Positions 9,712 through 30,548 are shown, counted from the first letter of the stretch. The stretch is 64,000 nucleotides of DNA from Candidatus Danuiimicrobium aquiferis (GCA_001804285.1 MHFR01000068.1:34383-98382); one strand, 5' to 3'. Notes: generated by a model from the letters alone, not told the origin. Translations and numbers: made by a program.

Positions 9712-9798
9712 GCCGGGATGGCGAAATTGGCAGACGCACAGGACTTAAAATCCTGAGGGAATTAACATTCCCGTGCCGGTTCAAGTCCGGCTCCCGGC
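9712..9798 (+). tRNA. tRNA-Leu (anticodon UAA) with a long variable arm; no CCA is encoded
   Basis: Acceptor GCCGGGA/TCCCGGC, anticodon stem CAGGA/TCCTG with loop CTTAAAA (anticodon TAA), variable-arm stem GGGAAT/ATTCCC, and T-arm GCCGG-TTCAAGT-CCGGC. Confidence 0.85.
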
Positions 9799-10136
9799 AG
9801 TATTTATTGTTAGGTTCTTCGGCTCATCCCGGCTCATCCCCAATAACAGGGGCAATGGCTAATTTAAGTTCATGTTTAACCGCATAAGATTTTCACGAGC
9901 AGATCTCGCAGTCCAATTCTAAAGTTCGTCAACCTCTATGCAATTTTTGCCCGACGTTCTTGCGCGGAAAAGTGCGATGTCAGCGGCTTTGATTAAATCT
10001 TTTAAAATATCCGATGATAACGCAGCACATGCTCTCTGTTTCTGCCGAATTTTTTATTGTATAAATTTGGGAATAAGATAGAATACGAAACTTATTAACG
10101 GAGTTATTCACCCATCTTCATGACGTATAAAAAAAG

Positions 10137-13663: not shown

Positions 13664-13760
13664 TGTCATCCCCGCGCAAGCGGGGATCCAGCAGTGCAAA
13701 AGAACTATCGGATAGATTCCCGCCCGCCTGCCGGCGAGGCAGGCTTTCGCGGGAATGACA
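13664..13760 (+). repeat. MITE-like repeat element (complete copy)
   Basis: tgtcatccccgcgcaagcggggatcc...attcccgcccgcctgccggcgaggcaggctttcgcgggaatgaca. It has terminal inverted repeats and internal hairpins. Confidence 0.7.
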
Positions 13761-16160: not shown

Positions 16161-19103
16161 GTGAAAAGGAAATCATTTCTTTTATCTACCATATTTATTT
16201 GTTTTGTTGGCGTTTATTCTTCCTGCCGGTCCAATTTCGATTTTCTTGTGAGTGATTACCGCTTTGTCCGCGAAGTGGGCGGTGTTCGCGAGTACGAACT
16301 TCAATCTAACGGCCTGCGTGTGCTGCTTGCCGAAGACCATTCCATTCCCGTTGCGACGGTGATGATGACATACCGTGTCGGCTCCCGAAATGAACCCGAA
16401 GGATTGCGCGGCGCGACGCATGTTTTCGAGCATGTGATGTTTAAGGGAACGGAAAAATATAATAAAACGCGAGGGACATCAATTCCGCAAGTTTTGGATC
16501 GTATCGGCGCTTTAATGAATGCGAGTACATGGTCCGACTATACATCCTATTATGAGATATTGTCGAGCGATGGACTTCCGCTCGTGCTCGATATCGAAGC
16601 GGACCGGATGCGTGGACTTCTTCTTGAAAAAAGCGGGTTGGATTCGGAGCGGCGCGTTGTCTTGAGCGAATTTGACCACCTTGAAAATTCTCCGTTGGTC
16701 ATTCTCGACCATGCGGTTCAAAAAGAAGCATTTTTGAAACATCCGTATCGCTTTCCGGTGATCGGCTTACGGACGGATATCGAAAATGTAACCGTTCGGG
16801 ATTTGCGAAATTTTTACGATACGTATTATTGGCCGAATAATGCGGTTCTTGCAGTGGCTGGTGATTTCAAAGAAGGGGATTTACTTCAGAAGATTATCAA
16901 TCTGTACGGCAAAATTCCGCATTCACCGAAAACTATTCCTGAGCCGCACATTCCTGAGCCTGAACAGCAGGGCCGCCGTTTTGTCAGGGTTGAAAAAGAA
17001 GATCGCATCAATGCGGTTTCGATGGTTTATAAATCACCGCGAGGGCAAGATCCTGATACGATTGTATTGGATTTGATCAGCGAAATTCTGAGCCGGGGAA
17101 AGGTGAGCCGTTTGTATCGCGCCTTGGTGGATGAAGGATTGGCCACGGAAGCCGGAGCCGAAGTAGCGAACCGTTACGATCCTGAATTTTTTGAAATCCA
17201 GGCCATTCTTTCCGAGAAAGCCGTGCATCAGGAAGTTGAAGAGCGCATTCTGAAGGTTCTTGATGATGTGAAAGCCGGCGGAGTGACGAAAGATGAACTT
17301 GAGTGGGCAAAAAACAATATCCGGGCACACGCGGCGTATGCACGGGACGGATCGTTTGCTTTTGTCCAGATGTTGAGCGAATTTATCGGTTCCGGTGAGT
17401 GGTCGTATTTTGAAGAGTATCTGAGCCGCATTCAAAATGTTTTGCTTGCAGACATTAAACGGGTAGCAAATCAATATTTTGTTTTCGAACGGCTGACAGC
17501 GGGTTATTTGGTTTCAAAGAAAACGGTCCCTCTTGTATCGATAATTAATTCAGATAACACTTTCTTTCCTCAAACGAATGGCATTGATGAACACATTAAA
17601 AAAAGTGCAGGAGAGAATGCTGTTATGGTTGTTGGTCAATCTGCCAGTGACTTGTCATTCCCGCGGAAGCGGGAATCCATGGATCCCCGCTTACAGCATG
17701 CGGGGATGACAGACGGTGGAACTGTGGACAATGCGAGTACTCTCAAAAATTCCGATCGTATAAGCTGCCGTTTGACGGACCGAATGAGAATAGAGTACAT
17801 CAATGGAATTAAAATCATCAGAGTTAAAACCGGTGTCCGGGATGTTGTGACGATTGCAGGATCCTTCGCCGGCGGAGGAACGGCCTATTCGGAAAATAAA
17901 ATGATTCCCACTCTTACCGTAGAAATGCTTGATAAGGGCACGCAAGGCCGTGATCAATTTGAAATCTCACGGCTTCTCACCAATGTGGGGGCGGAAATTT
18001 CATTTTATTACGATGAGGAACGGGCGGGGTTTAACGTCCGATGCTTAAAGAAAGATATTGCTCTCGTCATGGAGCTTTTGGCGGACGAGTTGCGGAATCC
18101 ATTGTTTGATGCGAAAGAATTTGAAAAACAAAAAGTGCGACGAGAGGTATCGATTCGTGAACAAATGAGTTCCGCTCCGGAGCAAGCGGCGATTTATTTC
18201 TCTCGAGCCGTTTATTCACCGGTCCACCCGCATTATAAAATTTCTTTGGAGGAGGAATTAAAGGAGCTGAGCAATATTTCTGTGAATGATGTGCGTAAAT
18301 TTTATAAAATGAATTATGGGTCGCAGAATATGGTATTTTCGGCCGTCGGAGATGTTGAATTTGGAGAATTTAAAAAAATAGCGGAAAAATATTTTGGCGA
18401 TTGGGAAATGAAAAATAATCCGGAGCAAACAGACGGTAAGGTGGCGGTGAACGGGGAGGGAATAAGAAAAGTGATCTCTATCCCGGACAAACCCAAGGTG
18501 GATGTGATCTTGGGCCACGGACTTCCTCTTGATCGAAAAAGCGAGGATTTCCTTCCTGTTTATCTTTCGAATTTGGTTTTGGGCGGCCCTTTCTCGTCGA
18601 GGCTTGTTTCAACGGTGAGGGATGAGAAAGGCTTGACTTATGCGATTCAATCCAAAATTTCAGGCGTCGAAAAAGGTATTCAAGGAGATTGGCGTATCCA
18701 TTTAATTTTAAATCCGGATAATTTAGAACAGGGAATTAATGAAACAAAAAAACAAATCGAGTTATTTCAGAAGAATGGCGTGACGCAAACAGAACTTGAT
18801 CAAATTAAGCAAACCGTAGCGGGTGAATTCAAAGTCAGCCTGTCCACGACAGGCGGTTTTTCGGCGCAAATATTGCGAAGCGAAGAACTGGGATTGGGCG
18901 TTGGATATCTCGATCAATTCCTTGATCTTATCAATCAAGTGACCTTGGATCAAGCGAATCAAGCGATCCGGAAATACCTTCATCCGGAAGCGCTTCATGT
19001 TGTGATTGCGGGAAGCGTGGAAGGGGAAATAAAAAGGGAAAAGATAAAACCCAATGTCCAAATCCCGATGACCAAGAAAAATTTCAATGTATCAAATCCG
19101 TAA
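16161..19103 (+). CDS. Tandem-M16 (pitrilysin-family) zinc peptidase, ~980 aa, with a repeat-encoded peptide in the inter-domain linker
   Basis: GTG start and signal peptide. The HVFEHVMFKGT inverted zinc motif (HxxEH) in the N-half. A second inactive M16 half. The repeat element at 17653-17711 is translated in frame (SFPRKRESMDPRLQHAGMT). Confidence 0.8.
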   Translation: MKRKSFLLSTIFICFVGVYSSCRSNFDFLVSDYRFVREVGGVREYELQSNGLRVLLAEDHSIPVATVMMTYRVGSRNEPEGLRGATHVFEHVMFKGTEKYNKTRGTSIPQVLDRIGALMNASTWSDYTSYYEILSSDGLPLVLDIEADRMRGLLLEKSGLDSERRVVLSEFDHLENSPLVILDHAVQKEAFLKHPYRFPVIGLRTDIENVTVRDLRNFYDTYYWPNNAVLAVAGDFKEGDLLQKIINLYGKIPHSPKTIPEPHIPEPEQQGRRFVRVEKEDRINAVSMVYKSPRGQDPDTIVLDLISEILSRGKVSRLYRALVDEGLATEAGAEVANRYDPEFFEIQAILSEKAVHQEVEERILKVLDDVKAGGVTKDELEWAKNNIRAHAAYARDGSFAFVQMLSEFIGSGEWSYFEEYLSRIQNVLLADIKRVANQYFVFERLTAGYLVSKKTVPLVSIINSDNTFFPQTNGIDEHIKKSAGENAVMVVGQSASDLSFPRKRESMDPRLQHAGMTDGGTVDNASTLKNSDRISCRLTDRMRIEYINGIKIIRVKTGVRDVVTIAGSFAGGGTAYSENKMIPTLTVEMLDKGTQGRDQFEISRLLTNVGAEISFYYDEERAGFNVRCLKKDIALVMELLADELRNPLFDAKEFEKQKVRREVSIREQMSSAPEQAAIYFSRAVYSPVHPHYKISLEEELKELSNISVNDVRKFYKMNYGSQNMVFSAVGDVEFGEFKKIAEKYFGDWEMKNNPEQTDGKVAVNGEGIRKVISIPDKPKVDVILGHGLPLDRKSEDFLPVYLSNLVLGGPFSSRLVSTVRDEKGLTYAIQSKISGVEKGIQGDWRIHLILNPDNLEQGINETKKQIELFQKNGVTQTELDQIKQTVAGEFKVSLSTTGGFSAQILRSEELGLGVGYLDQFLDLINQVTLDQANQAIRKYLHPEALHVVIAGSVEGEIKREKIKPNVQIPMTKKNFNVSNP
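17653..17711 (+). repeat. MITE-like repeat element inserted inside the M16 peptidase ORF without breaking the frame
   Basis: tgtcattcccgcggaagcgggaatccatggatccccgcttacagcatgcggggatgaca. No stop codon occurs in the host reading frame. Confidence 0.7.
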
Positions 19104-19176
19104 TTGGGTATTTATCTTTTTGGGATTTATTTGTGTCATTGAGATTTGGTCATTGCGCTTTTTAGAATCAACAAAA

Positions 19177-19228
19177 AAGGGGACAGGCATATGACTCAAA
19201 TTGAGCAATTGCCTGGCCCCTTTTTTTT
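19177..19228 (+). terminator. Rho-independent terminator downstream of the M16 peptidase gene
   Basis: aaggggacaggca...tgcctggcccc (10/11-bp stem) followed by tttttttt. Confidence 0.6.
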
Positions 19229-19374
19229 GTGACTAATGTCTAGTGACAAATTTTTCGTTTCACAAAAACTTTCCCCTTTACATTATTTTTTTAATTTCTA
19301 TAATAAACAGCAGTTACAAATTGATCTTTTAAACATTCGCCTTTATGGCGTAAGGTGCTTTGAGCAAATGCCCA

Positions 19375-19600
19375 AAGCTTAATAGGGAAGAGAGCCATGC
19401 GACGCTGATATCGATTTTTATTTGAAGCGTTGCAAGGACTCCACGGTGCCGCCGCTGTCGGCAAGAACGAAAGCGAAAAAACCACTGTTCTGACATTGTC
19501 GGAATGGGAAGGATCGCGAGTAGGTGAAGTGCTTGCCAGTCAGAAGACCTACCTTGATACATCAAAACATCTCCGAGCAGAGAACGAATAGTTGGGTTTT
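19375..19600 (+). promoter_or_regulatory. Candidate cobalamin (B12) riboswitch aptamer in the leader of the TonB-dependent receptor / btuFCD-like operon
   Basis: AATAGGGAAG...GGTGCCGCCGCTGTCGG...AACCACTG...GGGAAGG resemble the conserved AGGGAA / GGTGCC / GCCACTG (B12-box) / GGGAAGG elements. It lies in a 550-nt leader before a BtuB-like receptor. Confidence 0.5.
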
Positions 19601-19606
19601 ATTTTT

Positions 19607-19657
19607 CCCCTTTTGTTTTGTCTCTTGTCTGGAGATGAAACGAAAGGGGTTTTTTTA
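19607..19657 (+). terminator. Expression-platform hairpin plus T-run (terminator that sequesters the RBS) immediately before the receptor start codon
   Basis: ccccttt...aaagggg stem followed by ttttttt, then ATG at 19657. The SD-like aaagggg lies in the 3' half of the stem. Confidence 0.5.
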
Positions 19658-22014
19658 TGTCCAGGAACGAGCTATTCCTGAATAAATGTGATTCAGTATT
19701 CCGGTTTTTTCATCAAAGTTCAGCAGTTTTGTCATCCCCGCGGAAGCGGGGATCCGGCAATTTTAGATTCCCGCTTAAAGCATGCGGGAATGACACGATT
19801 CATGTTTTCAAAATTGTTTGTTTTTTCTTGTCTCTTTTTTTAAGCGTTTCTATTTTTGCCTTCGCAAAAACAGAAACACCCAAACCAACCGTCACTCAAA
19901 CAAACCAAAACGGTGACGTCAAAAAATCCGCACAAAAACCCGTCGCCGAAGTCACCGTGATTGCGTCGCGACTGCCGAGTTTTCAACAAAAACTCAACGA
20001 TATGCCGTCCAATATCACCTATAAAGATAAAACAGAACTGAATAAAACCCATCCCGCGACATTTCAAGATGCGGTTCGCGATACGGAAGGGGCCATTTTT
20101 TATGACCAAGTTGGAAACGGAGTTGATACGACATTCAGTTTGAGAGGATTTAATGAAGGAAATGCGGTGACTTTTATAGTGGATGGTGTTCGGGTGAACG
20201 AAGTAGATGGTGATGCTGTGAATTACCCTTTAGTTTCAATGAATGATATCGAGTCAATTCAAATTGAAAGAGGTTCCTCATCAGCCATTTATGGTAGTAA
20301 TGCGTTTGCGGGAGTTGTGAATATTACCACAAGAAAGCCAAGCGCTAAGAAGATTAGTGTTTTTGGTGGAGTTGAACTGTCCAGTTTTATGGGGATCAAA
20401 TTTAATCAAGGAATAAGCGGAAGCATTCCCGATAAAATAACACCGTTAAATGGTAAATGGACATACTATTTTAATGGCGGCCGCGATCTTAATCAGGGTT
20501 TTCGAGCTGATGGTGATTGGCGAATTACAAATTTTGACATAAAAACAGGATATGAATTAGCGGACAGTCAGGGCGGGGTTCGCGTTGGAGTCAAGCATGT
20601 TGTTGATGCTATTTCAAATCCCGGTTTTTTAACGATTCCCGAATATCATGCAGATTCAATGCAAACGAAAAATCCGCTCGATGGTCGGAAGTTTGATAAT
20701 ACAATTGTGCAAATCAGTGCAGATAAGAAATTTTTGGATGACCGGATTACTGCCAGCTTGATGAATAATTGGCGATATAATTTGATCAAGTTTTATACAA
20801 CAGCGCGCACAATGGCGGATGGAGCCTTTAATCCGGACACAGATTTGACGACTACGCGTTCTCGGGCAACGGATCTGGTCTGGCAATTAGGTTACAGTGA
20901 TCGTTGGGATTGGGTCGGGAATGATACGTTACTTGGAATGGAATTTCGGGATGCTGCACAATATGATCTTGAGCAAGATGCGTTTCAAGGGATAGTGGTT
21001 GATAATAGTCCGGCCGAGACCAATCGGAACGCAAAGCCTCGTTCCGGGGCACTGTTTTGGAGACAAAACGTATCATTTTTTGACCGGATTAATTTTCATT
21101 ATGGAATGAGGCATGATTATGTATGGCTGAAGAATCAAGATAAAGTAGCACCGGTAAATAATTTCTCTAAACGATGGAACGATTCTACACTATCGACAGG
21201 TGTTGCGCTGAAACCGTGGTCATTAGCTGATTTTTTCTGGAATTATTCACAAGGTTTTCGAGCACCTGCTATTAGTGATTTAGCGCCATGGTCGGAATGG
21301 GGGGGCTCGGGTGTTTCTTACAATCTTGCGCCTGAAAAATCGGATAGTTATGAAGCAGGTACTCGGCTGAGATTACATCCTCGGGCGAATGTAAAATTGA
21401 GTTATTTTCTCATCGATATGAAAAATGAAATTGCTTACTCGCTAGGAGTCGGTGAGAATATTAATATCGGACGAACCCGTCGTTATGGGACTGAATTCCG
21501 TTTGGATACAAATCCTATTGAAGAAATGATTTTTTACGGTGTGCATACTTGGACGAATGCGTATGTGCGTGAAATAGATGATAATTTTAATCAAACCGTG
21601 GATGGCAGAACGATTGGGATGATTCCTGAACAGCAGTTCGTGTTTGGCACAACAGCAAAACCGTTCAAGAGGTTAGGAGAATATTGGGATAAGTTTGAAA
21701 TCGGTATGAACGGTACATTGACAGGGAAGCAGCATCCAGTTGGATTTGAATCGTCCACCGAAGCGAGATTGGATAGTACAAGCCATTGGATTAAAGCATA
21801 TCAGATTTGGAATTTTATCTGTCAATATGAATTCCATGGAATCCAGACATATTTCAAAATTAATAACATTTTTGATCAACGATATTATAATCGTGCTATT
21901 GCGGCGTCGAACTCAGCGTTTTCCCCCTCTTCGCTTACGCCCCCAGGGACTCATTATTTTGTTACTCCTGGAGCGCCCAGGGAATTTGTCATTGGAACGA
22001 AGTGGGAGTTTTGA
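19657..22014 (+). CDS. TonB-dependent outer-membrane receptor (BtuB-like) whose N-terminal leader contains a translated repeat element
   Basis: TonB-box-like EVTVIA, plug domain (FSLRGF...VDGVRVNE...IEIERGSSSAIYGSNAFAGVVNI), beta-barrel, and C-terminal ...GTKWEF. The repeat at 19730-19795 is in frame before the hydrophobic signal segment. No in-frame ATG lies downstream of the repeat. Confidence 0.75.
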   Translation: MSRNELFLNKCDSVFRFFHQSSAVLSSPRKRGSGNFRFPLKACGNDTIHVFKIVCFFLSLFLSVSIFAFAKTETPKPTVTQTNQNGDVKKSAQKPVAEVTVIASRLPSFQQKLNDMPSNITYKDKTELNKTHPATFQDAVRDTEGAIFYDQVGNGVDTTFSLRGFNEGNAVTFIVDGVRVNEVDGDAVNYPLVSMNDIESIQIERGSSSAIYGSNAFAGVVNITTRKPSAKKISVFGGVELSSFMGIKFNQGISGSIPDKITPLNGKWTYYFNGGRDLNQGFRADGDWRITNFDIKTGYELADSQGGVRVGVKHVVDAISNPGFLTIPEYHADSMQTKNPLDGRKFDNTIVQISADKKFLDDRITASLMNNWRYNLIKFYTTARTMADGAFNPDTDLTTTRSRATDLVWQLGYSDRWDWVGNDTLLGMEFRDAAQYDLEQDAFQGIVVDNSPAETNRNAKPRSGALFWRQNVSFFDRINFHYGMRHDYVWLKNQDKVAPVNNFSKRWNDSTLSTGVALKPWSLADFFWNYSQGFRAPAISDLAPWSEWGGSGVSYNLAPEKSDSYEAGTRLRLHPRANVKLSYFLIDMKNEIAYSLGVGENINIGRTRRYGTEFRLDTNPIEEMIFYGVHTWTNAYVREIDDNFNQTVDGRTIGMIPEQQFVFGTTAKPFKRLGEYWDKFEIGMNGTLTGKQHPVGFESSTEARLDSTSHWIKAYQIWNFICQYEFHGIQTYFKINNIFDQRYYNRAIAASNSAFSPSSLTPPGTHYFVTPGAPREFVIGTKWEF
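19730..19795 (+). repeat. MITE-like repeat element inside the 5' coding region of the TonB-dependent receptor gene
   Basis: ttgtcatccccgcggaagcggggatccggcaattttagattcccgcttaaagcatgcgggaatgaca. Confidence 0.7.
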
Positions 22015-22601
22015 TGAGGAAGAATCAAATTGCTATTTTTGTGGTGATGCTTTTTGTGGCGGTATTTTTATTGGCCATGATGTTTATTCCTCTCATTTCA
22101 GCTCAGGAGGGAATTGTCGTGCCGGCGAGAATAGTTCCGGAACCGGTAGCCCAAAAAGGAAATACAGAGTTGGTGGCTGATGTCATTCCCGCAAGCCTTG
22201 GGCGGGAATCTCTGGATCTTGGATTCCCGACACCCAAGGAAAAATTGGGCCGGTCCGCCCTGTCCCGCGGGAAGACATTCGGGAATGACAGGAAAGATAG
22301 AGCTCAAACATCTTCCTTCACACTTCCTTACCTTGAATCCATCCCAAAACCGGTTCCGTACCCCCGATCGGCCATTCGCCATGAACTGGAAGGGAAAGTC
22401 GTGATGGCGCTTGAAATTCTGAAGGACGGATCAGTCGGCCGTTCGCATATGGCGAACTCTTCCGGTTTTGCCATATTGGATAAGGCGGCGATGAATGCTG
22501 TTAAAACGTGGGAATTTCATCCGGCGCTGAAAAGCGATAAACCAATTGTGGAATATATTGAAGTGCCTGTGAGTTTTGAACTGGAGGGGAATGGTTCTTA
22601 A
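22002..22601 (+). CDS. tonB: Energy transducer TonB (N-terminal TM anchor plus C-terminal TonB_C domain) with an in-frame repeat element
   Basis: TM helix IAIFVVMLFVAVFLLAMMFIPLI. C-terminal LEGKVVMALEILKDGSVGRSHMANSSGFAILDKAAMNAVKTWEFHP is the TonB_C fold pattern. The 110-bp repeat at 22181-22290 is translated in the linker. Confidence 0.7.
   Translation: MGVLMRKNQIAIFVVMLFVAVFLLAMMFIPLISAQEGIVVPARIVPEPVAQKGNTELVADVIPASLGRESLDLGFPTPKEKLGRSALSRGKTFGNDRKDRAQTSSFTLPYLESIPKPVPYPRSAIRHELEGKVVMALEILKDGSVGRSHMANSSGFAILDKAAMNAVKTWEFHPALKSDKPIVEYIEVPVSFELEGNGS
22181..22290 (+). repeat. MITE-like repeat element (110 bp) inside the tonB ORF without breaking the frame
   Basis: tgtcattcccgcaagccttgggcgggaatctctgg...gacattcgggaatgaca. 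It reads through as ...IPASLGRESLDLGFPTPKEKLGRSALSRGKTFGNDR... Confidence 0.7.
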
Positions 22602-22608
22602 ATTTAAT

Positions 22609-22679
22609 GGTCATTCCCGCCTCCCTGGAAATACAGGGCTGGCCCTCGTCTTACCGAGGGAAGATTTGCGGGAATGACA
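22609..22679 (+). repeat. MITE-like repeat element (intergenic)
   Basis: ggtcattcccgcctccctggaaatacagggctggccctcgtcttaccgagggaagatttgcgggaatgaca. The terminal inverted repeats enclose two internal hairpins. Confidence 0.7.
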
Positions 22680-22698
22680 GATAACCCATTATTCAAAT

Positions 22699-23625
22699 AT
22701 GCATTCAATCAAAGACATCATCACTCGAATCGTCAATCAAAATCCATACGACGGGATTCTTTTTTCCGGGGGATTGGATAGTTCCATTGTCGCGGCATTG
22801 AGCCCTACAGCAATCGGAATTACGGTCACTTTGGGGCGACACGCTGAAGATACGCCTTACGCTCATTTGCTCGCAAAAACAATCGGAATGAAACAGCATC
22901 GTCGGAGTGTGAGTATTGATGAAGCGATAGCGAATATTCCGAAGGTGATCAAAATTTTAAAATCATTTGACCCTGCGCTGCCGAACGATCTGGCGGCATA
23001 CTTCGGACTTGAGACGGCGAAGCAATTGGGTCTGCGTCGCGTGGCGACAGGCGATGGAAGCGATGAATTGTTTGGCGGATATTCGTTTATGGCTGAGATT
23101 AAAGATTTGAATGGCTATATCGCGCATGTCGCGAAGAAAATGCATTTCAGCTCGAATGATATCGGAAAATATTTTCATTTAAAAATTGTCCAGCCGTTTT
23201 TTGATCAGCGCGTGATCAATTGCGCATTAGCTATTCCCGCCAATCTGAAGATCAAAAAAGTTAAAGGCAAGAATTGGGGGAAATGGATTTTGCGGAAGCA
23301 ATTTTCTGATTTGTTACCGAAAAAGATTGCGTGGCAAAGCAAGCGGCCATTAGAAGTCGGATCGGGGATGACGAAGCTCCGCAATATCCTCTCGGCTCAA
23401 ATATCCGATCAGGAATTTGCTGCCAATCCTTATCCGGTAAAGTTTTTCAATAAAGAGCATTTTTATTATTACAAAGTTTATCGCAAAGTGATCGGTGAAA
23501 TTCCGAGGCCTCGATCGGGTGAAAAGAGTTGTCAGGGTTGCGGCGCAGGGATGGACAGAAACCATTTCCATTGCAAGGTGTGCGGACATGTGCTCCCGAT
23601 GTTGGAAAGGTACGGATTAAAATGA
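22699..23625 (+). CDS. Asparagine-synthetase-family PP-loop ATP pyrophosphatase (synthetase domain only) with a C-terminal zinc ribbon
   Basis: ILFSGGLDSS PP-loop, TGDGSDELFGGY (AsnB-type motif), and CQGCGAG...CKVCGH at the C-terminus. No glutaminase domain is present. Confidence 0.65.
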   Translation: MHSIKDIITRIVNQNPYDGILFSGGLDSSIVAALSPTAIGITVTLGRHAEDTPYAHLLAKTIGMKQHRRSVSIDEAIANIPKVIKILKSFDPALPNDLAAYFGLETAKQLGLRRVATGDGSDELFGGYSFMAEIKDLNGYIAHVAKKMHFSSNDIGKYFHLKIVQPFFDQRVINCALAIPANLKIKKVKGKNWGKWILRKQFSDLLPKKIAWQSKRPLEVGSGMTKLRNILSAQISDQEFAANPYPVKFFNKEHFYYYKVYRKVIGEIPRPRSGEKSCQGCGAGMDRNHFHCKVCGHVLPMLERYGLK

Positions 23626-24302
23626 AAGCATTTATTTCGTGGAGCGGGGGGAAAGATAGCGCGTTATCGTGTCATCGGGTGATGCAGAATTTAGGCATTC
23701 ACGTTACACATTTCTTAAATATGCTTACCGAAGATGGCACGCGGTCCCGCTCTCACGGCCTTGAACCGGCGTTGCTGCAATTGCAGGCAAAGGCCGCCGG
23801 AGTTGCACTTGTCCAGGGAAAAGCGGGATGGGATGATTACGAAAAAGAATTTAAAAAAGCCATTTTAGAATTAAAAAAGGAAGGCGTCGAGGCCGGTGTG
23901 TTTGGCGATATCGATCTCCAGCCGCATCGTGATTGGGTTGAAAGAGTTTGCAAAGAGACAGGAATTCGCGCGATTCTTCCGATTTGGAATGAAGGCCGGG
24001 AAAAATTGTTGGATGAATTTATCGATGCTGGATTTCGCGCGAAGATTGTTGTGGCGGATTCTAAATATTTGGATGATAGTTGGCTTGGGTGCGAGATTGA
24101 CCGCGAGTTTATCAAAAAAGCCAAAGCATACGGAAAGATCGATCTTTGCGGCGAAGGCGGCGAATATCATACGTTTGTGTGTGCCGGCCCGATTTTTGAA
24201 AAGCCAGTTGAGTTTACAGAAGAAAAAAAAGTTTTAATCGGCGGGACGCATTGGTGTTTGGCGCTTAAGGTTGGGAACGGTGCAAAAAATGGTAATTATT
24301 AG
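23622..24302 (+). CDS. MJ0570/Dph6-related PP-loop ATP pyrophosphatase (diphthine-ammonia-ligase-like domain)
   Basis: FISWSGGKDS PP-loop at the N-terminus and the GEGGEYHTFV motif. ATGA start/stop overlap with the upstream gene. Confidence 0.65.
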   Translation: MKAFISWSGGKDSALSCHRVMQNLGIHVTHFLNMLTEDGTRSRSHGLEPALLQLQAKAAGVALVQGKAGWDDYEKEFKKAILELKKEGVEAGVFGDIDLQPHRDWVERVCKETGIRAILPIWNEGREKLLDEFIDAGFRAKIVVADSKYLDDSWLGCEIDREFIKKAKAYGKIDLCGEGGEYHTFVCAGPIFEKPVEFTEEKKVLIGGTHWCLALKVGNGAKNGNY

Positions 24303-24322
24303 AACGGGTTTCATAAATCTCT

Positions 24323-24432
24323 GTCATTCCCGCAAGCTTTTGGCGGGAATCTATAAACGTCTTCGTCACAATGCATTGAGAGTCGGATCCGCCTCTGGCG
24401 GAGATTCCCGACTAAAGCTTTCGGGAATGACA
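24323..24432 (+). repeat. MITE-like repeat element (110 bp, intergenic)
   Basis: tgtcattcccgcaagcttttggcgggaatc...tcggatccgcctctggcggagattcccgactaaagctttcgggaatgaca. Confidence 0.7.
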
Positions 24433-24446
24433 TCTTTGGAGTTTGG

Positions 24447-25301
24447 ATGATCAGTTTTAAAAAGATACCTGTAATTACTCTTCTATTTATTGTTTCCTTC
24501 GTGCTCAGCAGGCAATTGTTCGCACAAGAAGCATATCCCAAACGCATCATTTCCCTCGGCCCTGCCATTACGGAATCACTTTATCTTCTAAATGCCGGCG
24601 ACCGGATTGTCGGGAACACGATTTATTGTGAAAGGCCGGAGGCGGCAAAGAAGAATGAAAAAATCGGAACGGTTGTCGAAATCAATTTGGAAAAAATCGT
24701 TTCGCTCGAGCCCGATTTGATTATCGCGACCTCTTTGACGAATTCTCAAGCGAAGGAAAAGTTAAAAATGCTTGGACTTCGTGTGGTTGAAATTTCACAA
24801 GCCCAAAGTTTTGGGGACCTTTGCGATAATTTTATTAGGCTTGGAGAAATTGTCGGGCAAAAACAATTAGCGGAGGAGATTACCGCCACCGCAAAGAACG
24901 AAGTGACTTCCTTGAAAGCGAAAACGGAAGCGTTGCCTAAGCCTACGGTTTTTCTACAACTTGGGATGAAACCATTGGTGACAGTGACCCAGGACTCCTT
25001 TATGAATGATTATATTGAATTTGCCGGAGGCGTGAACATTGCGAAAGGAATCGGGAGGCCGCTTTATTCAAAAGAAAAGGTGGCTGCCAGTAACCCAGAT
25101 GTGATTATTGTGGTAAGTATGGGAACCAATAATGCGGAAGAAGAGAAAAAAAACTGGGAAAGTTACCAGGAATTAAAAGCCGTTCAAAAAAAGCGTATTT
25201 ATATTATCGATTCGAATCCTCTTTGCAGTCCGACCCCCGTTAGTTTTGTGGCGGCTTTGCAAAATGTTATCCACCTTTTACATCCCGACGATGAACAATA
25301 A
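24447..25301 (+). CDS. ABC transporter periplasmic substrate-binding protein, class III (BtuF / Fe-siderophore type)
   Basis: Signal peptide, then KRIISLGPAITESLYLLNAGDRIVG and LEPDLIIA motifs typical of BtuF/FhuD-like binding proteins. Confidence 0.75.
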   Translation: MISFKKIPVITLLFIVSFVLSRQLFAQEAYPKRIISLGPAITESLYLLNAGDRIVGNTIYCERPEAAKKNEKIGTVVEINLEKIVSLEPDLIIATSLTNSQAKEKLKMLGLRVVEISQAQSFGDLCDNFIRLGEIVGQKQLAEEITATAKNEVTSLKAKTEALPKPTVFLQLGMKPLVTVTQDSFMNDYIEFAGGVNIAKGIGRPLYSKEKVAASNPDVIIVVSMGTNNAEEEKKNWESYQELKAVQKKRIYIIDSNPLCSPTPVSFVAALQNVIHLLHPDDEQ

Positions 25302-26292
25302 AATCACCAAATGGGTTTTTTGGGTGTTGTTCCTAACAAGCATCACGATCGGTGTGGTGATCTGGTCTTTGACGGTTGGCTCTTCCGGGATTCCCGCAGG
25401 GAAAGTTTTCACCGTTTTATTCCGGGGGACGGCCGGGCCCGAATATGACATTATTTTTAATATTCGTTTGCCGCGGATCATTTTAGGATTTGCGATTGGC
25501 GGCGCATTGAGTCTTGCGGGAATCCTTTTACAGGGAATGTTCCGGAATCCGTTGGTGGAACCGTACACGTTGGGAATTTCGGGCGGGGCCGGGCTTGGTG
25601 TTTCATTGAATATTCTTTTGGGTTTCTATCAAATAGGTGTTTTGACTTTGCCTTTTTCCGGCTTTTTAGGAGCGATTGTTGTCCTGGCGATCGTCTATGT
25701 TTTGAGTTTGCGAAGAGGATCCTCGCAGCTTCAGGGTTTGCTTCTGACAGGGGTGATGATGAGCTTCGTTTGTTCGTCCGTCATGATGTTAATCATGGCG
25801 ATTTCGCGGACAGAAGATCTTCACGGGATCATTTTCTGGGTGATGGGTTCCTTGGAAGAATCGAACTGGTTGATGATTAAAATCACGCTGATTGTATCGG
25901 TCTTCTTTTTGGTGATAGCTCATTTTTTTTGTCTCGACCTGAACGCCTTGTCTTTGGGGGAAGAAGAGGCGCAGCATCTTGGTATTCATGTTGAGAGGAC
26001 GAAACGCCTCCTTTTTATTATGACGTCGCTCTTGACGGGATTTTGTGTTTCCGTCGCGGGAATTATCGGATTTGTGGGCCTCGTAGTGCCGCATTTCATC
26101 CGGGTATTTATCGGAAACGATCACCGAGTATCGCTTGTCGCTGCATTTTTAGCCGGCGGTGCTTTTTTGATTTTTTGCGACACATTGGCAAGAACGATGA
26201 TTGCTCCGCTTGAATTACCGGTGGGTGTGATTACCGGAATCATCGGCGGCGGCCTTTTTATTTATATGTTAGCGAAACGCGGGAAACGGTAA
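25291..26292 (+). CDS. FecCD-family ABC permease (BtuC-like)
   Basis: Multi-TM protein with RLPRIILGFAIGGALSLAGILLQ and the C-terminal GxIGFVGLVVPH motif. The start was chosen at ATG 25291 (a further upstream ATG at 25246 is possible). Confidence 0.75.
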   Translation: MNNKITKWVFWVLFLTSITIGVVIWSLTVGSSGIPAGKVFTVLFRGTAGPEYDIIFNIRLPRIILGFAIGGALSLAGILLQGMFRNPLVEPYTLGISGGAGLGVSLNILLGFYQIGVLTLPFSGFLGAIVVLAIVYVLSLRRGSSQLQGLLLTGVMMSFVCSSVMMLIMAISRTEDLHGIIFWVMGSLEESNWLMIKITLIVSVFFLVIAHFFCLDLNALSLGEEEAQHLGIHVERTKRLLFIMTSLLTGFCVSVAGIIGFVGLVVPHFIRVFIGNDHRVSLVAAFLAGGAFLIFCDTLARTMIAPLELPVGVITGIIGGGLFIYMLAKRGKR

Positions 26293-26299
26293 GGGAATC

Positions 26300-27079
26300 A
26301 TGGTGCTGACGATCAATCATTTAACGTGCGGGTATGGCCGGAAAATTGTGCTTGATGATATTCATTTTTCTATTCAGAAGGGCGAATTCCTGGGAATTAT
26401 TGGGCCGAATGGCTCGGGAAAAACGACACTTCTACGATCGTTGACGAGAGTGGTTCAGCCGGTAAAAGGGGAAATTCTTTTTGAAGGGGAAGCGGTCGGG
26501 GCGATCCAACCGAAGCAGCTTGCTAAAAAAATCGCCGTGGCCTCGCAATCTTTATTTGAACCTCATATGCTTGTCGAGGATTTTGTCCTTTTAGGGAGAA
26601 TCCCGCATTATCAGAGTTTTCAATTATTAGAAACGAAAAAGGATTTTGAGGTTGCGGAAAGAGTGATGCGGTTAGCCGGCGTGAGCGATCTTCGAAATGC
26701 TTTTATGGACGAGATCAGCTCTGGAGAGAGGCAGTTAGTGGTGATTGCCCGCGCTCTCGCGCAGGAACCCAGCCTGCTTCTATTGGATGAGCCGACAGCG
26801 CATTTGGATATTACGCATCAGGTTCAAATCATGGATTTAATCAAGCGATTGAATCAAACGCTGGGCCTGACCGTGATTGTCGTTTTGCACGACCTTAATT
26901 TAGCAAGTGAGTATTGCCGCCGGCTTCTTTTAATTAAGAGCGGCCGGGTTCATAAACTCGGTGAGCCCCGGGACGTATTGAACGCTCAGACCATTGAAGA
27001 AGTTTATCGAACACGGGTGCATGTAGAAAAAAATCCGCTTTCTTCTAAACCCTATATATTGTTGACGAGCGAAGAATAA
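26300..27079 (+). CDS. ABC transporter ATP-binding protein (BtuD/FecE-like)
   Basis: Walker A GPNGSGKTT, signature SGGERQ, and Walker B LLLLDEP. Confidence 0.8.
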   Translation: MVLTINHLTCGYGRKIVLDDIHFSIQKGEFLGIIGPNGSGKTTLLRSLTRVVQPVKGEILFEGEAVGAIQPKQLAKKIAVASQSLFEPHMLVEDFVLLGRIPHYQSFQLLETKKDFEVAERVMRLAGVSDLRNAFMDEISSGERQLVVIARALAQEPSLLLLDEPTAHLDITHQVQIMDLIKRLNQTLGLTVIVVLHDLNLASEYCRRLLLIKSGRVHKLGEPRDVLNAQTIEEVYRTRVHVEKNPLSSKPYILLTSEE

Positions 27080-27200: not shown

Positions 27201-27294
27201 TGATTTGTTAGCCCTGATTTCTCATCGTTAATAAGAAATTCCGCTCGTAAGAGTTGCGGTGCAAAGATGTTTGCGTCTTTGCGTCGCAGGGCTT

Positions 27295-27631: not shown

Positions 27632-27841
27632 ATGATCAAAGACGAAATTCTGACCCTCAAACAAGTCGCGATATTTTTAAAAGTAAGCCCTCTGACGATT
27701 CACCGTCTTACCAAAAAAGGAATCCTTCCCGGCGTGAAGATCGGAAATCAATGGCGCTATTGGCGTAAAAATATCGAGGTGATTTTGAAAAATCCGGAAA
27801 CATTGTCACAAGCCATGATGAAAAAACGAAAGGTTGCATGA
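27632..27841 (+). CDS. Excisionase/AlpA-family helix-turn-helix DNA-binding protein
   Basis: 69 aa. LTLKQVAIFLKVSPLTIHRLTKKGILPGVKIGNQWRY is an HTH_17-type motif. Confidence 0.65.
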   Translation: MIKDEILTLKQVAIFLKVSPLTIHRLTKKGILPGVKIGNQWRYWRKNIEVILKNPETLSQAMMKKRKVA

Positions 27842-28311
27842 TAATGAGGAATTGGGAATCGCTTTTAGGTACTCTTATTTATATTCTCGCCGCACTCATT
27901 GCGGCGCTTGCTGTGGTACAGCTTGTTGTGACGCCATTCAGGTTAGGCAGCCAAAAGTCAAGCGGCCATGCGTTAAGTTCGATTGATTCATTCCGGATGA
28001 CGAAATTGAAACCGTTGGAAGCATATAAGAGTGATTTTGCGAGCCATGCTCTTTTTTCAAAACTCAGAGTTGCCGTTGTTCCGAAAGGTCCGACGATAGA
28101 TGATTTACTCAAGCAATATTCGATTAACGGAATTATTCAAGGAGCGGTTCCGGATGTTTTGATTATGAATAATAGAACAAGACAAACGCAGATTTTGAGC
28201 GCCGGGCAAAGTTTCGATCAATTTAAAATCATACAAATTAAACAGCATTCCATCATGGTTGAATATCAAGGGCAACAAAAAGAACTATTTATTGCGGAGG
28301 GGCAACAATGA
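27838..28311 (+). CDS. Membrane-anchored protein, possibly a PilP/GspC-like secretin-associated component
   Basis: N-terminal TM helix LIYILAALIAALAVVQLVV. It lies immediately upstream of, and overlaps, the secretin gene. No strong motif was found. Confidence 0.4.
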   Translation: MIMRNWESLLGTLIYILAALIAALAVVQLVVTPFRLGSQKSSGHALSSIDSFRMTKLKPLEAYKSDFASHALFSKLRVAVVPKGPTIDDLLKQYSINGIIQGAVPDVLIMNNRTRQTQILSAGQSFDQFKIIQIKQHSIMVEYQGQQKELFIAEGQQ

Positions 28312-30548
28312 AAACGGTAACGGAAAAAATAACTGCAATGCTGATTGCTTTCGTATTGATTTGGATGGCGCCGGTTCCTCTCTACGCACAGGGATTTGAT
28401 CCGCCGCAACAGAACTCGAACAGTGATCAATCCGGTAGTAATGCGGATCCCACAACTCAATTTGGTAGTAATGTGGATCCCACAGCGTTGCAGATGGATG
28501 TTTCCATACCGGATGCAACCGGAATGGGTCAACTGCCGGTGATGAATATGGAGCCCGGTTCGGACAGCCAGCGGATTACACTGGAACTCAAAGGAGTGGA
28601 TGTCCTGGATGTCCTTAAAATCCTTTCAAGCCGGTCCGGTCTTAATATTGTTGCCGGGAAGAATGTGCGGGGGCAGGTAACCATTTATCTGAAAGATGTT
28701 TTGATTCAGGAAGCCCTTGATACGATCGTTGCCGCCCTTGGCCTTGCCTATGAGGAGGAACAGGGAATTATCAAGGTCATGACGGATAAGGAATATGAAG
28801 CTATGTACGGCCGGATTTTCCGTGACCGTCGCGTGACAAAGACATTTAAGATTAAATATGCCGAACCGACGACGATTCAACAGGTGCTTCAGCAGCTCAA
28901 AGGGCCGCAGGGGAAAATTATTCTGGATGAACGGACGAATACATTAATTATACAGGACCTTCCTGAAATTATTGATGAAATTGAAAACGCGATTTCCGAG
29001 TTAGATCAGAAATTAGTGACAAAAGTATACAAACTGCAATATGCGCCGGTTGAGGATTTGGAAGAAAAGCTTTCGACTTTTTTAACGCCGGAAACGGGTG
29101 TCATTAAAATTGATCCGCGCACGAATATGGTGACGGTGACAGATCGCGAGGAAAAGATCCAGATGATCGATGAAATCGTAAAAGCGTTTGATAAAAGACC
29201 CAAGCAGGTATTAATCGAAGCACAAATAATCGAAGTTCAGCTTTACGATGCGTACAGATTTGGAATCGATTGGGATTATGTGAGAAGCCAAATGGGACAG
29301 CTGAAGGATGTTAACATCCAGCCAGGGTATGGAGTTCCTGTTGTTCCGGGATCTACTGGAGGTGGAGGGACACTGACGTCAATTACTGTTGGAGAAACTG
29401 GGATGGCCGGGCTCAGTAATATGGTAATTCGTATTTTGCAGAACGTCGGCAAAACAAATACATTGGCATCTCCGCGTTTGTCCGTTCTCAATAATGAAGA
29501 AGCAAAATTGGCTGTAACGACGAAGGAACCATATATCGTGTCGGACACGACGTATGCGACTTCCGGGTCATCTTCAGTGCCTTATGTAGCAGAAAAACCG
29601 GAATTTGTGGATGTCGGAGTAGCGCTATCGGTTGTCCCGACCATTTCTGATGATAATACGATTATTTTGAAGATTAAACCTGAAGTGAGCAATACGAATG
29701 CTCCCGACTTTGAATACGATACAGCGGCAGGTACTGTGGATACGGCCATATCAAGATCTATTCCGGTTGTAGCTTCTCAAACACTTGAAACAACGGTTAT
29801 CGTTAAATCCGGTGAAACTATTATTCTTGGTGGATTGATTAATGATTCAGAATCTAAAACAAGGGAGAAAGTGCCTGTTTTGGGTGATATTCCGGTTATC
29901 GGGGCTTTGTTTAGAAAAACATCAGATACATTTACGAAAGATGAATTAGTTATTTTTCTTACGCCGCATATTATTTCTGGAGATGCTAGTTCCAGTGAGC
30001 AGGCGAAGTATCTTGATAATAACGGTCGCTTAATCAATTTTGATAAAGCGGGAGGTTATGACTTTGGGTTGGCCCAAAAACATTCACAAGGGGCGGCAAG
30101 GATTGATAACCGGCCGTATTGGAAAATCGATAAGCCAAAATGGCCGCAATATGCAATTCCACCGGATGTTTATACGCGATCAAAACCGTATGCGGATCGT
30201 ATGAATGAATTTGAAGGAGGAAAGGAAGGGAAAGTTATTCCGCCGAAGGAGACACTCATCGATGAATACCAGCAGCAAGTCGGGGCGCAGGTGTCTGCGA
30301 GTCTGGAAGCTGTTGAGGAAATTCAAAGTTTGGAAGGCAATATGGATTTGGCTTTGACCATCCGGAGAGACGGCGTGCTTGAAGAGGTTTCCTTTATCGA
30401 TGTCGGGCCGGTCAAAAAACGGGACGTGCGATACAAGATTTTGGATGCGATTAAAGGAGCCGGACAATTTCCGGCATTTCCGAAGGGGTTGGATTCGGCG
30501 AAAGAAACTTTGGATTTGAGGTTTGAGTTGGAGAGTGAAAAGATATAA
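28308..30548 (+). CDS. Secretin (GspD/PilQ family) with a ~190-aa C-terminal extension resembling a TonB_C domain
   Basis: Secretin N-domains (LELKGVDVLDVLKILSSRSGLNIVAG...) and the C-terminal secretin core VPVLGDIPVIGALFRKTSDTFTKDELVIFLTPHII. The extension ...LTIRRDGVLEEVSFIDVGPV...ILDAIKGAGQFPAFPKG...LDLRFELE has the TonB_C-like pattern. Confidence 0.8.
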   Translation: MKTVTEKITAMLIAFVLIWMAPVPLYAQGFDPPQQNSNSDQSGSNADPTTQFGSNVDPTALQMDVSIPDATGMGQLPVMNMEPGSDSQRITLELKGVDVLDVLKILSSRSGLNIVAGKNVRGQVTIYLKDVLIQEALDTIVAALGLAYEEEQGIIKVMTDKEYEAMYGRIFRDRRVTKTFKIKYAEPTTIQQVLQQLKGPQGKIILDERTNTLIIQDLPEIIDEIENAISELDQKLVTKVYKLQYAPVEDLEEKLSTFLTPETGVIKIDPRTNMVTVTDREEKIQMIDEIVKAFDKRPKQVLIEAQIIEVQLYDAYRFGIDWDYVRSQMGQLKDVNIQPGYGVPVVPGSTGGGGTLTSITVGETGMAGLSNMVIRILQNVGKTNTLASPRLSVLNNEEAKLAVTTKEPYIVSDTTYATSGSSSVPYVAEKPEFVDVGVALSVVPTISDDNTIILKIKPEVSNTNAPDFEYDTAAGTVDTAISRSIPVVASQTLETTVIVKSGETIILGGLINDSESKTREKVPVLGDIPVIGALFRKTSDTFTKDELVIFLTPHIISGDASSSEQAKYLDNNGRLINFDKAGGYDFGLAQKHSQGAARIDNRPYWKIDKPKWPQYAIPPDVYTRSKPYADRMNEFEGGKEGKVIPPKETLIDEYQQQVGAQVSASLEAVEEIQSLEGNMDLALTIRRDGVLEEVSFIDVGPVKKRDVRYKILDAIKGAGQFPAFPKGLDSAKETLDLRFELESEKI

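Follow-up and report, generated by a model that had tools for sequence, protein, structure and literature searches.

Organization of the operon

The window analysed here is a stretch of 64,000 nucleotides (nt) from Candidatus Danuiimicrobium aquiferis (GCA_001804285.1, MHFR01000068.1:34383-98382), and the system under study is a candidate corrinoid-uptake operon of seven genes on its plus strand. Two PP-loop enzymes, an AsnB-like protein (AsnBl) and a protein of the DUF71-B12 type, are encoded among a TonB-dependent receptor, TonB and an ATP-binding cassette (ABC) importer, behind a cobalamin riboswitch. The features are listed below, where SD stands for the Shine-Dalgarno sequence, GAT for the glutaminase (glutamine amidotransferase) domain and aa for amino acids.

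19277-19304 (+), promoter-like site TTTACA-16-TATAAT, 11/12 matches; a consensus match only, 3' of the terminator-like repeat of the upstream gene
19336-19570 (+), cobalamin riboswitch aptamer (RF00174, Rfam), full length, with the B12 box and the peripheral CCACUG...GGGAAGG extension
19607-19656 (+), expression platform: a 19-bp hairpin (19607-19649) followed by U7, an intrinsic terminator whose 3' arm is the SD (folding; top terminator-like match)
19657-22014 (+), TonB-dependent outer-membrane receptor, Plug and beta-barrel, 785 aa, public gene call (PF07715, PF00593)
22014-22601 (+), TonB-family protein with TonB_C domain, 195 aa, public gene call (PF03544, 1.1e-17)
22699-23625 (+), AsnBl, 308 aa, a stand-alone AsnB-synthetase-type PP-loop domain without GAT and with a C-terminal Zn ribbon (PF00733, 1.3e-35)
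23622-24302 (+), DUF71-B12-type PP-loop ATP pyrophosphatase, 226 aa (PF01902, 6.1e-48)
24447-25301 (+), BtuF-like periplasmic substrate-binding protein (Peripla_BP_2) with signal peptide (PF01497, 7e-34)
about 25264-26292 (+), BtuC-like permease of the FecCD family, start uncertain (25246, 25264 or 25291) (PF01032, 1.4e-90)
26300-27079 (+), ABC ATPase, BtuD/FecE-like (Pfam PF00005, NCBIfam)
27254-27289 (+), terminator-like hairpin 3' of the last gene, 16-bp stem with a weak T tail; probable end of the operon (terminator scan)

As the first-pass annotation of this DNA had described, the two PP-loop genes (PF00733 and PF01902) lie between tonB and the binding-protein gene and are joined by an ATGA overlap of the asnBl stop and the duf71 start; the btuF-like gene starts 144 nt after duf71. 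The description of the whole as BtuB-TonB-BtuFCD-like holds at the level of Pfam, by which a TonB-dependent receptor, TonB and a BtuFCD-type importer are all present, but not at that of the NCBIfam equivalogs. The receptor falls below both BtuB cut-offs (TIGR01779, 77.8 vs 599.7 bits; NF007926, 56.8 vs 836), the binding protein below that of BtuF (115 vs 234 bits) and the ATPase below that of the corrinoid ATPase (221 vs 537 bits), and the best NCBIfam matches of the permease are BtuC models, again below cut-off (254 vs 461 and 234 vs 334 bits). Because the BtuB, BtuF and BtuC cut-offs are not reached, the label 'Btu' rests on context, and a specificity of the receptor and the BtuFCD-like proteins for corrinoids is predicted from riboswitch control and operon context. 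No convincing internal terminator or promoter was found in the operon, where such matches occur only at the level of shuffled sequences; because of this, and because the repeat hairpins within it (described in the last section) have no T-runs, the seven genes are probably transcribed as a single unit.

The cobalamin riboswitch and its expression platform

The leader is a genuine cobalamin riboswitch, as had been proposed from its conserved blocks. The covariance match to RF00174 (Rfam) at 19336-19570 (+) reaches 71.7 bits, with a gathering score of 31.5 and an E-value of 1e-15, and covers model positions 1-189 of 189. All blocks quoted in the first-pass annotation were found, namely AATAGGGAAG at ~19381, GGTGCC at ~19446, AACCACTG at ~19479 and GGGAAGG at ~19506, and the B12 box AGTCAGAAGACCTACC is located at ~19538. 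The peripheral extension of the aptamer suggests a response to adenosylcobalamin.

Regarding the expression platform, the predicted burial of the SD by a hairpin and a T-run was also confirmed. The stem (-34.3 kcal/mol, z -3.59) is followed by TTTTTTT and then by the ATG at 19657, and the 3' arm, GAAAGGGG, is the SD-like sequence belonging to the first gene. Hairpin, T-run and (A or G)TG follow one another in this order also in the leaders of the two closest orthologs (L001 and L002 of the comparative set described below). Terminator formation and/or SD sequestration is the kind of platform by which a cobalamin riboswitch is recognised, and in this arrangement corrinoid binding would favour the terminator, i.e. 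the element would act as an OFF switch. The leader is shorter than the 550 nt first given for it. The 553-nt intergenic space begins after a gene for an M16 peptidase (16161-19103), the upstream neighbour of the operon, and includes the terminator-like inverted repeat of that gene (19173-19226) and the promoter-like site in addition to the leader; the true leader is therefore ~350 nt rather than 550.

The two PP-loop enzymes

AsnBl aligns only to residues ~209-504 of E. coli AsnB and gives no Pfam match to a glutamine amidotransferase (GATase) domain. The family shows no variation in the PP-loop SGGLD, in the residues at the positions of AsnB D351/E352, K429 and K449, or in a C-terminal Zn ribbon of the form CxxC...HCxxC (C278/C281/H291/C292/C295). 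The AlphaFold (AF2) model (predicted local distance difference test, pLDDT, 90.2; predicted template modelling score, pTM, 0.89) has its best fold matches in AsnB (1CT9, Foldseek E 1e-14), human ASNS, beta-lactam synthetase, carbapenam synthetase (CarA) and TsnB9, with a query-normalised TM-score of 0.70-0.74 for AsnB and human ASNS. To our knowledge, every one of these enzymes activates a carboxylate by adenylation before the C-N bond is made, and by analogy the same chemistry would be expected of AsnBl, which shares with them the fold, the SGGLD loop and the ATP-binding residues. AsnBl differs from these relatives in the absence of the N-terminal glutaminase/Ntn domain, in the added Zn ribbon and in being confined to B12 salvage operons. 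It also differs in the residues that we take to be the aspartate-recognising ones of AsnB, E348, D384 and R387: the first is an invariant Asp in AsnBl, the second is Ser, and the third belongs to a segment absent from the family, while the T322/R325 region is not conserved. The scores of AsnBl are below the asparagine synthetase B cut-offs (TIGR01536, 99.7 vs 267 bits; NF006949, 126.7 vs 499 bits).

The second enzyme carries the SGGKDS motif (sequence MKAFISWSGGKDS) and is homologous to the diphthine-ammonia ligase PF0828 (3RJZ; E 6e-24). It scores below the Dph6 equivalog cut-off (TIGR03679, 128.2 vs 197.3 bits) and does not have the EGG[ED]xE motif, reading GEGGEYHTF where PF0828 reads GEGGEFETF, with a His in place of Dph6 Glu188; ExGE[YF]H is found in 120 of its 120 closest homologs. 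Because the curated AsnB and Dph6 thresholds are not reached, the public names of the pair, 'asparagine synthase' and 'diphthine--ammonia ligase', are misannotations.

A His for Dph6 Glu188 (motif ENGE[FY]H) is the signature of the DUF71-B12 subgroup of DUF71/COG2102, which was named in 2012 for genes adjoining btuCDF and whose function was left open (PMC3541065). In that survey 75 of 102 bacterial and extra archaeal DUF71 genes adjoin B12 transporter genes and 18 of 102 adjoin cbiB (de Crecy-Lagard et al. 2012, PMC3541065). The window protein belongs to the subgroup by its PF01902 domain with SGGKDS, by the ExGE[FY]H His motif and by its clustering with B12 genes, here of the btuFCD type and elsewhere of salvage; its own motif is EGGEYH, in contrast to the published ENGE[FY]H. 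In the bacterial genomes available in 2012, the same authors observed that DUF71-B12 is strictly anti-correlated with CbiZ and co-occurs with CbiB, and from the anti-correlation they suggested, with caution, that it acts in pseudo-B12 salvage in the manner of CbiZ (PMC3541065). They also noted that bacteria are without diphthamide, and discussed archaeal AsnB-DUF71 fusions (Methanohalophilus and others), which have a GAT-II glutaminase, with respect to diphthamide (PMC3541065). In 2016 the function of DUF71-B12 was still listed as unknown (PMC5041015). The salvage step that the first-pass annotation called unrecognised was thus partly on record, since the transport link of DUF71-B12 had been published; for the AsnB-like partner no report was found. 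In text searches of PMC3541065, AsnB came up only in the form of archaeal fusions that contain GAT, from a few species, and a literature search returned neither a report of an AsnB-like partner in B12 operons nor a later characterisation of DUF71-B12. The AsnB-like partner, together with the bacterial fusions and the CbiZ adjacency presented below, appears to be unreported.

Comparative genomics of the pair

A profile of AsnBl homologs yielded 80 loci from GTDB species genomes (labelled L0xx), and the neighbouring genes were identified by open reading frame (ORF) calling, phmmer against the window proteins, clustering and NCBIfam naming of the clusters. The loci carry labels of Omnitrophota, Nitrospirota/Thermodesulfovibrionales, Desulfobacterota-type, Aerophobetes, Elusimicrobia, Firestonebacteria, Hydrogenedentota and others. 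DUF71 is encoded at most 3.3 kb downstream of AsnBl in 65 of the 73 loci with enough sequence, and of the 41 loci in which the start of DUF71 could be located, 31 have the two genes overlapping or no more than 60 nt apart. This pairing, in the present operon and in no fewer than 65 related loci, with an AsnB-type enzyme that has no GAT distinguishes the system from the DUF71-B12 subgroup as published. Further B12 genes or a riboswitch core are present in 76 of the 80 loci, with BtuC in 50, CobT in 47, CbiB and CobD in 44 each, CobU in 43, CobS in 41, CobA in 35 and CbiZ in six. The order seen most often is CobC-CobU-CobT-CobS-CbiB-CobD-AsnBl-DUF71-BtuF-BtuC-BtuD-CobA; a receptor and ExbBD/TonB may or may not be present. 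The window and its closest relatives (L001, L002 and L019) have the pair among transport genes only, and no cbiB or cobD lies within 64 kb; a scan of the window with hidden Markov models (HMMs) of the neighbour clusters (cobT/S/U/C/D, cbiB, cobA, cbiZ and cbpB) retrieved nothing except tonB.

Rfam cobalamin riboswitches head the operon in 12 of the 16 related loci tested, and in L030 the riboswitch is directly upstream of AsnBl (123.7 bits). At the gathering score none was detected in L002, L019, L085 and L036, of which L085 begins inside the operon. A covariance model of our own, built from a MAFFT alignment of eight riboswitch matches, was discarded for the bad alignment of its 5' half, and a strict regular expression for the riboswitch core was used instead; it matched in at least 35 of the 80 loci, directly upstream of AsnBl in L035 and L069, and in no shuffled sequence. 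Linkage of the two PP-loop genes to corrinoid transport and salvage, first suspected from a single operon, is therefore seen across many genomes, and the pair is kept in the B12-scavenging operons of many uncultured bacteria; this linkage strongly supports, as far as gene context can, that the pair belongs to corrinoid salvage.

Two loci from complete or near-complete Thermodesulfovibrio genomes (L081 and L084) have the order riboswitch-receptor-DUF71-CobT-CobS-CbiP-CbiB-CobD-CobU-BtuF and no AsnBl. Among the 80 AsnBl loci, CbiP is represented by one partial CbiP-like match only. In this small sample, with two Thermodesulfovibrio genomes, CbiP adjoins DUF71 only where AsnBl is absent, a weak hint that AsnBl replaces CbiP. 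This lineage includes cultured isolates and may offer a tractable system for the genetics of DUF71-B12.

Other elements were seen in or near these B12 operons. A small radical S-adenosylmethionine (SAM) protein of ~240 aa is encoded repeatedly between DUF71 and BtuF of B12 salvage operons, sometimes in two copies (L015 9434-10168 and 11 other loci; L085 145-852; L086 10383-12010). Tandem cobalamin riboswitches precede the receptor gene in L086 (4293-4509 and 4734-4969), and the regular expression gave doublets in L044, L048 and L052. Tandem aptamers of the cyclic di-GMP-I type lie just 3' of the B12 salvage operon in L087 (16059-16148 and 16248-16332), and a 6S RNA gene (L004 11923-12107; 87 bits) directly follows the DUF71 gene.

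Gene fusions and neighbours bearing on the ligand

Two natural fusions bear on the role of the pair. P0255, a protein of 526 aa found in five contigs from more than one assembly, joins AsnBl to DUF71, and its operon has the order cobCUTS-cbiB-cobD-[fusion]-btuFC with a riboswitch at the head. Like the archaeal AsnB-DUF71 fusions, P0255 unites an AsnB-type PP-loop domain with DUF71; unlike them, it is bacterial, has no GAT, carries the Zn ribbon and lies in a cobalamin salvage operon. Neither this fusion nor the co-occurrence with CbiZ described below is a feature of the DUF71-B12 subgroup as published. In P0241 (L036 4962-6398) DUF71 is fused to a BtuF-like domain without signal peptide, and a free-standing BtuF-like paralog lies beside DUF71 in L029 (12321-13106), L031 (7931-8689), L047 (13846-14631) and L063 (10597-11379). 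This DUF71-adjoining paralog (Peripla_BP_2) is Cys-rich and has no signal peptide, and is presumably cytoplasmic. On the basis of P0255 and P0241, the fusions argue that the two enzymes would act together or in sequence and that the ligand of DUF71 is probably a corrinoid. A further DUF71::BtuF protein, P0242 from Elusimicrobiota, was rejected as a second fusion of this type: its BtuF half keeps a mid-protein signal peptide, and the ORF is a probable read-through.

CbiZ is encoded directly beside DUF71 in L009, L021, L029, L031 and L086. The calls in the first four loci were made with the CbiS N-terminal adenosylcobinamide-hydrolase model (cluster 15), with PF01955 confirmed in L009; for L086, PF01955 is given in the public gene table. 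Because CbiZ adjoins DUF71 in several loci, the anti-correlation between DUF71-B12 and CbiZ is not strict.

Proposed role in corrinoid salvage

We propose, with moderate confidence, that corrinoids repress this uptake operon of an Omnitrophota bacterium and that the embedded pair amidates corrinoid carboxylates. With a corrinoid bound to the riboswitch, the downstream hairpin would form, transcription would stop at U7 and the SD of the first gene would be hidden; when corrinoids are scarce, the receptor, tonB, asnBl, duf71 and btuFCD would all be expressed, presumably from one transcript. The receptor and TonB, followed by the BtuFCD-like ABC system, would carry corrinoids into the cytoplasm, where AsnBl and DUF71-B12 would form a functionally coupled module for their salvage. 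Each enzyme would adenylate a carboxylate of the imported corrinoid (ATP giving AMP and pyrophosphate, PPi) and then form the amide from free ammonia, the donor expected because neither enzyme has a glutaminase domain. In this way amide side chains may be restored or completed, and deamidated or incompletely amidated corrinoids may become usable as cobyric-acid-type or cobamide-type molecules. Three points favour amidation: it is in line with the chemistry of all characterised relatives, glutaminase domains are absent, and the operon encodes two different enzymes.

The arrangement resembles the btuB system of E. coli and Salmonella, in which a cobalamin riboswitch represses the gene of an outer-membrane TonB-dependent receptor, and in which BtuB and TonB are combined with a type II ABC importer that has a periplasmic binding protein. 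It differs in that all components and tonB are present in one operon, with two cytoplasmic enzymes embedded, in that the terminator of the platform also masks the SD, and in that the proteins fall below the equivalog cut-offs. With regard to the chemistry, CbiA amidates the a and c side chains and CbiP the b, d, e and g side chains, and both are glutamine-dependent MinD/ParA-like ATPases that act via acyl-phosphates and give ADP and Pi. The presence of two distinct PP-loop enzymes is reminiscent of this division of the side chains. We tentatively suggest that the pair is an ammonia-dependent, acyl-adenylate-forming system for the amidation of corrinoid side chains, non-homologous to CbiA/CbiP. 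If so, it would share with CbiA/CobB and CbiP/CobQ the ATP-dependent amidation of corrin acetate and propionate side chains, and would differ from them in fold and mechanism, using acyl-adenylates (AMP and PPi) and probably free NH3.

Several points weigh against this proposal. An antiterminator alternative of the riboswitch was looked for in the leader and was not identified, and the HMM scan of the 64-kb window detected no nucleotide-loop genes. The pair is unrelated to CbiA and CbiP, the corrinoid amidases known so far, and the proposal assumes that deamidated corrinoids make up an environmental pool of some relevance. BtuF comes straight after AsnBl, with DUF71 not between them, in about eight loci, and DUF71 occurs without AsnBl in Thermodesulfovibrio and in L090; since each gene can occur without the other, the two proteins are not an obligate complex. 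The pair is found right after cbiB-cobD in about half of the loci, a position that fits a role at the f side chain equally, and in 13 of the 80 loci two other genes, cbpA and cbpB, lie between AsnBl and DUF71. Finally, the proposed substrate and reaction are predictions drawn from fold, context and fusions.

The position behind cbiB-cobD raises the alternative, which we regard as unlikely, that the f-propionate of adenosylcobyric acid is activated to an acyl-adenylate by one of the PP-loop enzymes or by both, for the attachment of aminopropanol phosphate by CbiB/CobD. The amine would then be aminopropanol phosphate, not ammonia, and the pair would be accessory to cobinamide-phosphate synthesis. 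AsnBl is indeed immediately downstream of cbiB-cobD in most of the loci that have them, and CbiB is a membrane protein without a recognisable nucleotide-binding fold. The cbiB-adjoining DUF71-B12 genes of the 2012 survey point in the same direction. However, the window and its three closest relatives, with their pair among transport genes only, do not fit such a role, and one carboxylate does not require two different PP-loop enzymes. The well-studied CbiB systems, such as that of Salmonella, need no such partner. Distinctly unlikely, in our view, is the extension of the 2012 hypothesis by which DUF71-B12 and its partner fill the bacterial role of CbiZ, converting pseudo-B12 or cobinamide, by cleavage or remodelling, into adenosylcobyric acid or providing another route to it. 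Operons with cbiB/cobD need an intermediate at the level of cobyric acid, yet few of the loci encode CbiZ, and the anti-correlation and the co-occurrence with CbiB reported in 2012 would agree with a replacement. Against this stand the loci in which CbiZ is the direct neighbour of DUF71, and the ATP-dependent ligase folds of both proteins, whereas amide hydrolysis needs no ATP, an objection made already by a reviewer of the 2012 paper (PMC3541065). The CbiZ adjacency and the ligase folds together weaken the only published functional proposal for DUF71-B12.

The genes cbpA and cbpB could indicate a cassette similar to those of peptides made by the ribosome and modified after translation (RiPPs), in which the pair acts on the peptide CbpA with CbpB to give a peptide-derived factor for corrinoid handling, although we consider this very unlikely. 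CbpA is a small basic peptide of ~35 aa (...RKKCKAxGTGLSHYxLLDKK; TIGR04164) and CbpB a radical SAM/SPASM protein (TIGR04163, 679 bits); the loci include L005, L008, L013, L015, L018 (10951-11058 and 11153-12526), L021, L023, L036, L037 and L039, and the literature search gave nothing relevant on either protein. P0251 looks like a fusion of a CbpB C-terminus to DUF71, AsnB-type domains also act as lasso-peptide cyclases, and AsnBl has weak NCBIfam matches to models of such cyclases. The pair is nevertheless far more widespread than cbpAB: no cbpB lies within 10 kb in 67 of the 80 loci, including the window, in which neither cbpB (HMM) nor a CbpA-like ORF was found, and a corrinoid is the ligand suggested by the joining of DUF71 to a BtuF-like domain in P0241. 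That the PP-loop genes are unrelated passengers, serving ordinary asparagine or diphthamide-type metabolism as their public annotations would have it, is extremely improbable. Neither protein reaches the curated family cut-offs, AsnBl has neither the glutaminase domain nor the D384/R387 region of AsnB, and bacteria are without diphthamide (PMC3541065). The B12 linkage across many phylum-level labels already contradicts such a reading.

Implications for corrinoid salvage

Most microbes depend on B12 made by others, and salvage routes shape microbial communities. DUF71-B12 has been a named orphan of B12 salvage since 2012 and can now be tested directly, with three constraints added here: a conserved second PP-loop partner that in one or more lineages is joined to DUF71, a fusion to a BtuF-like domain that is presumably cytoplasmic, and the CbiZ adjacency. 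What was a vague association with B12 thereby becomes a specific biochemical hypothesis in which proteins and substrates are named. If corrinoid amidation by the pair is correct, it would constitute a new branch of salvage or repair, by which anaerobes that scavenge B12 could mend deamidated cobamides or complete the amidation of corrinoids acquired from their surroundings. It would also give a function to more than 1,000 proteins annotated as 'asparagine synthase-related' and to thousands of bacterial entries annotated as 'diphthine-ammonia ligase'. Thousands of public annotations mislead, as the names 'Asparagine synthase (glutamine-hydrolysing)' and 'diphthine--ammonia ligase' are wrong for these bacterial proteins.

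Repeat elements and neighbouring genes

The operon contains four hairpin elements resembling repetitive extragenic palindromes (REP) or miniature inverted-repeat transposable elements (MITE). The family has inverted ends TGTCATTCCCGC...GCGGGAATGACA and forms strong hairpins (z -4 to -6), and 17 of its half-sites occur in the 64 kb, compared with 1.4 expected by chance. Two of the four elements are inside ORFs, in the N-terminus of the receptor and in the linker of tonB, and both are in frame. They are listed here with the further half-sites; no strand is assigned to them.

19731-19795, REP/MITE-like hairpin (GTCATCCCCGC...GCGGGAATGAC) in the 5' end of the receptor ORF; z -4.3, position kept in L001 and L002
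22181-22290, REP/MITE-like element, inserted in frame into the variable tonB linker; the TonB of L001 has a gap opposite it
22610-22679, REP/MITE-like hairpin between tonB and asnBl, without T-run; -38.1 kcal/mol, z -5.1
24322-24432, REP/MITE-like hairpin between the DUF71 gene and btuF, without T-run; -54.3 kcal/mol, z -6.3
about 2259, 6466, 9090, 9418, 13665-13759, 17654-17710 and 30605, further REP/MITE-like half-sites in the window

The first of these elements concerns the start of the receptor. The ORF opens ~50 codons before the signal-peptide-like segment (…IVCFFLSLFLSVSIFAFA), and this N-terminal extension is partly encoded by the element. All three orthologs have the frame open and keep the (A/G)TG that follows the T-run, as GTG in L001 and L002. 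A start 3' of the element was considered and rejected, as the signal-peptide-like segment has no ATG, GTG or TTG in frame ahead of it there, and position 19657 was kept with the caveat that the extension may be an extended signal peptide or the product of a mis-set start.

Genes for type II secretion or pilus components (a GspC-like protein, a secretin and a T2SS F protein) lie 3' of the operon, at 27838-30548 of the window and beyond, where L001 and L002 have other genes. Upstream, at 9712-9799, the window encodes an 88-nt tRNA with a long variable arm and the anticodon loop CUUAAAA, probably tRNA-Leu(UAA).

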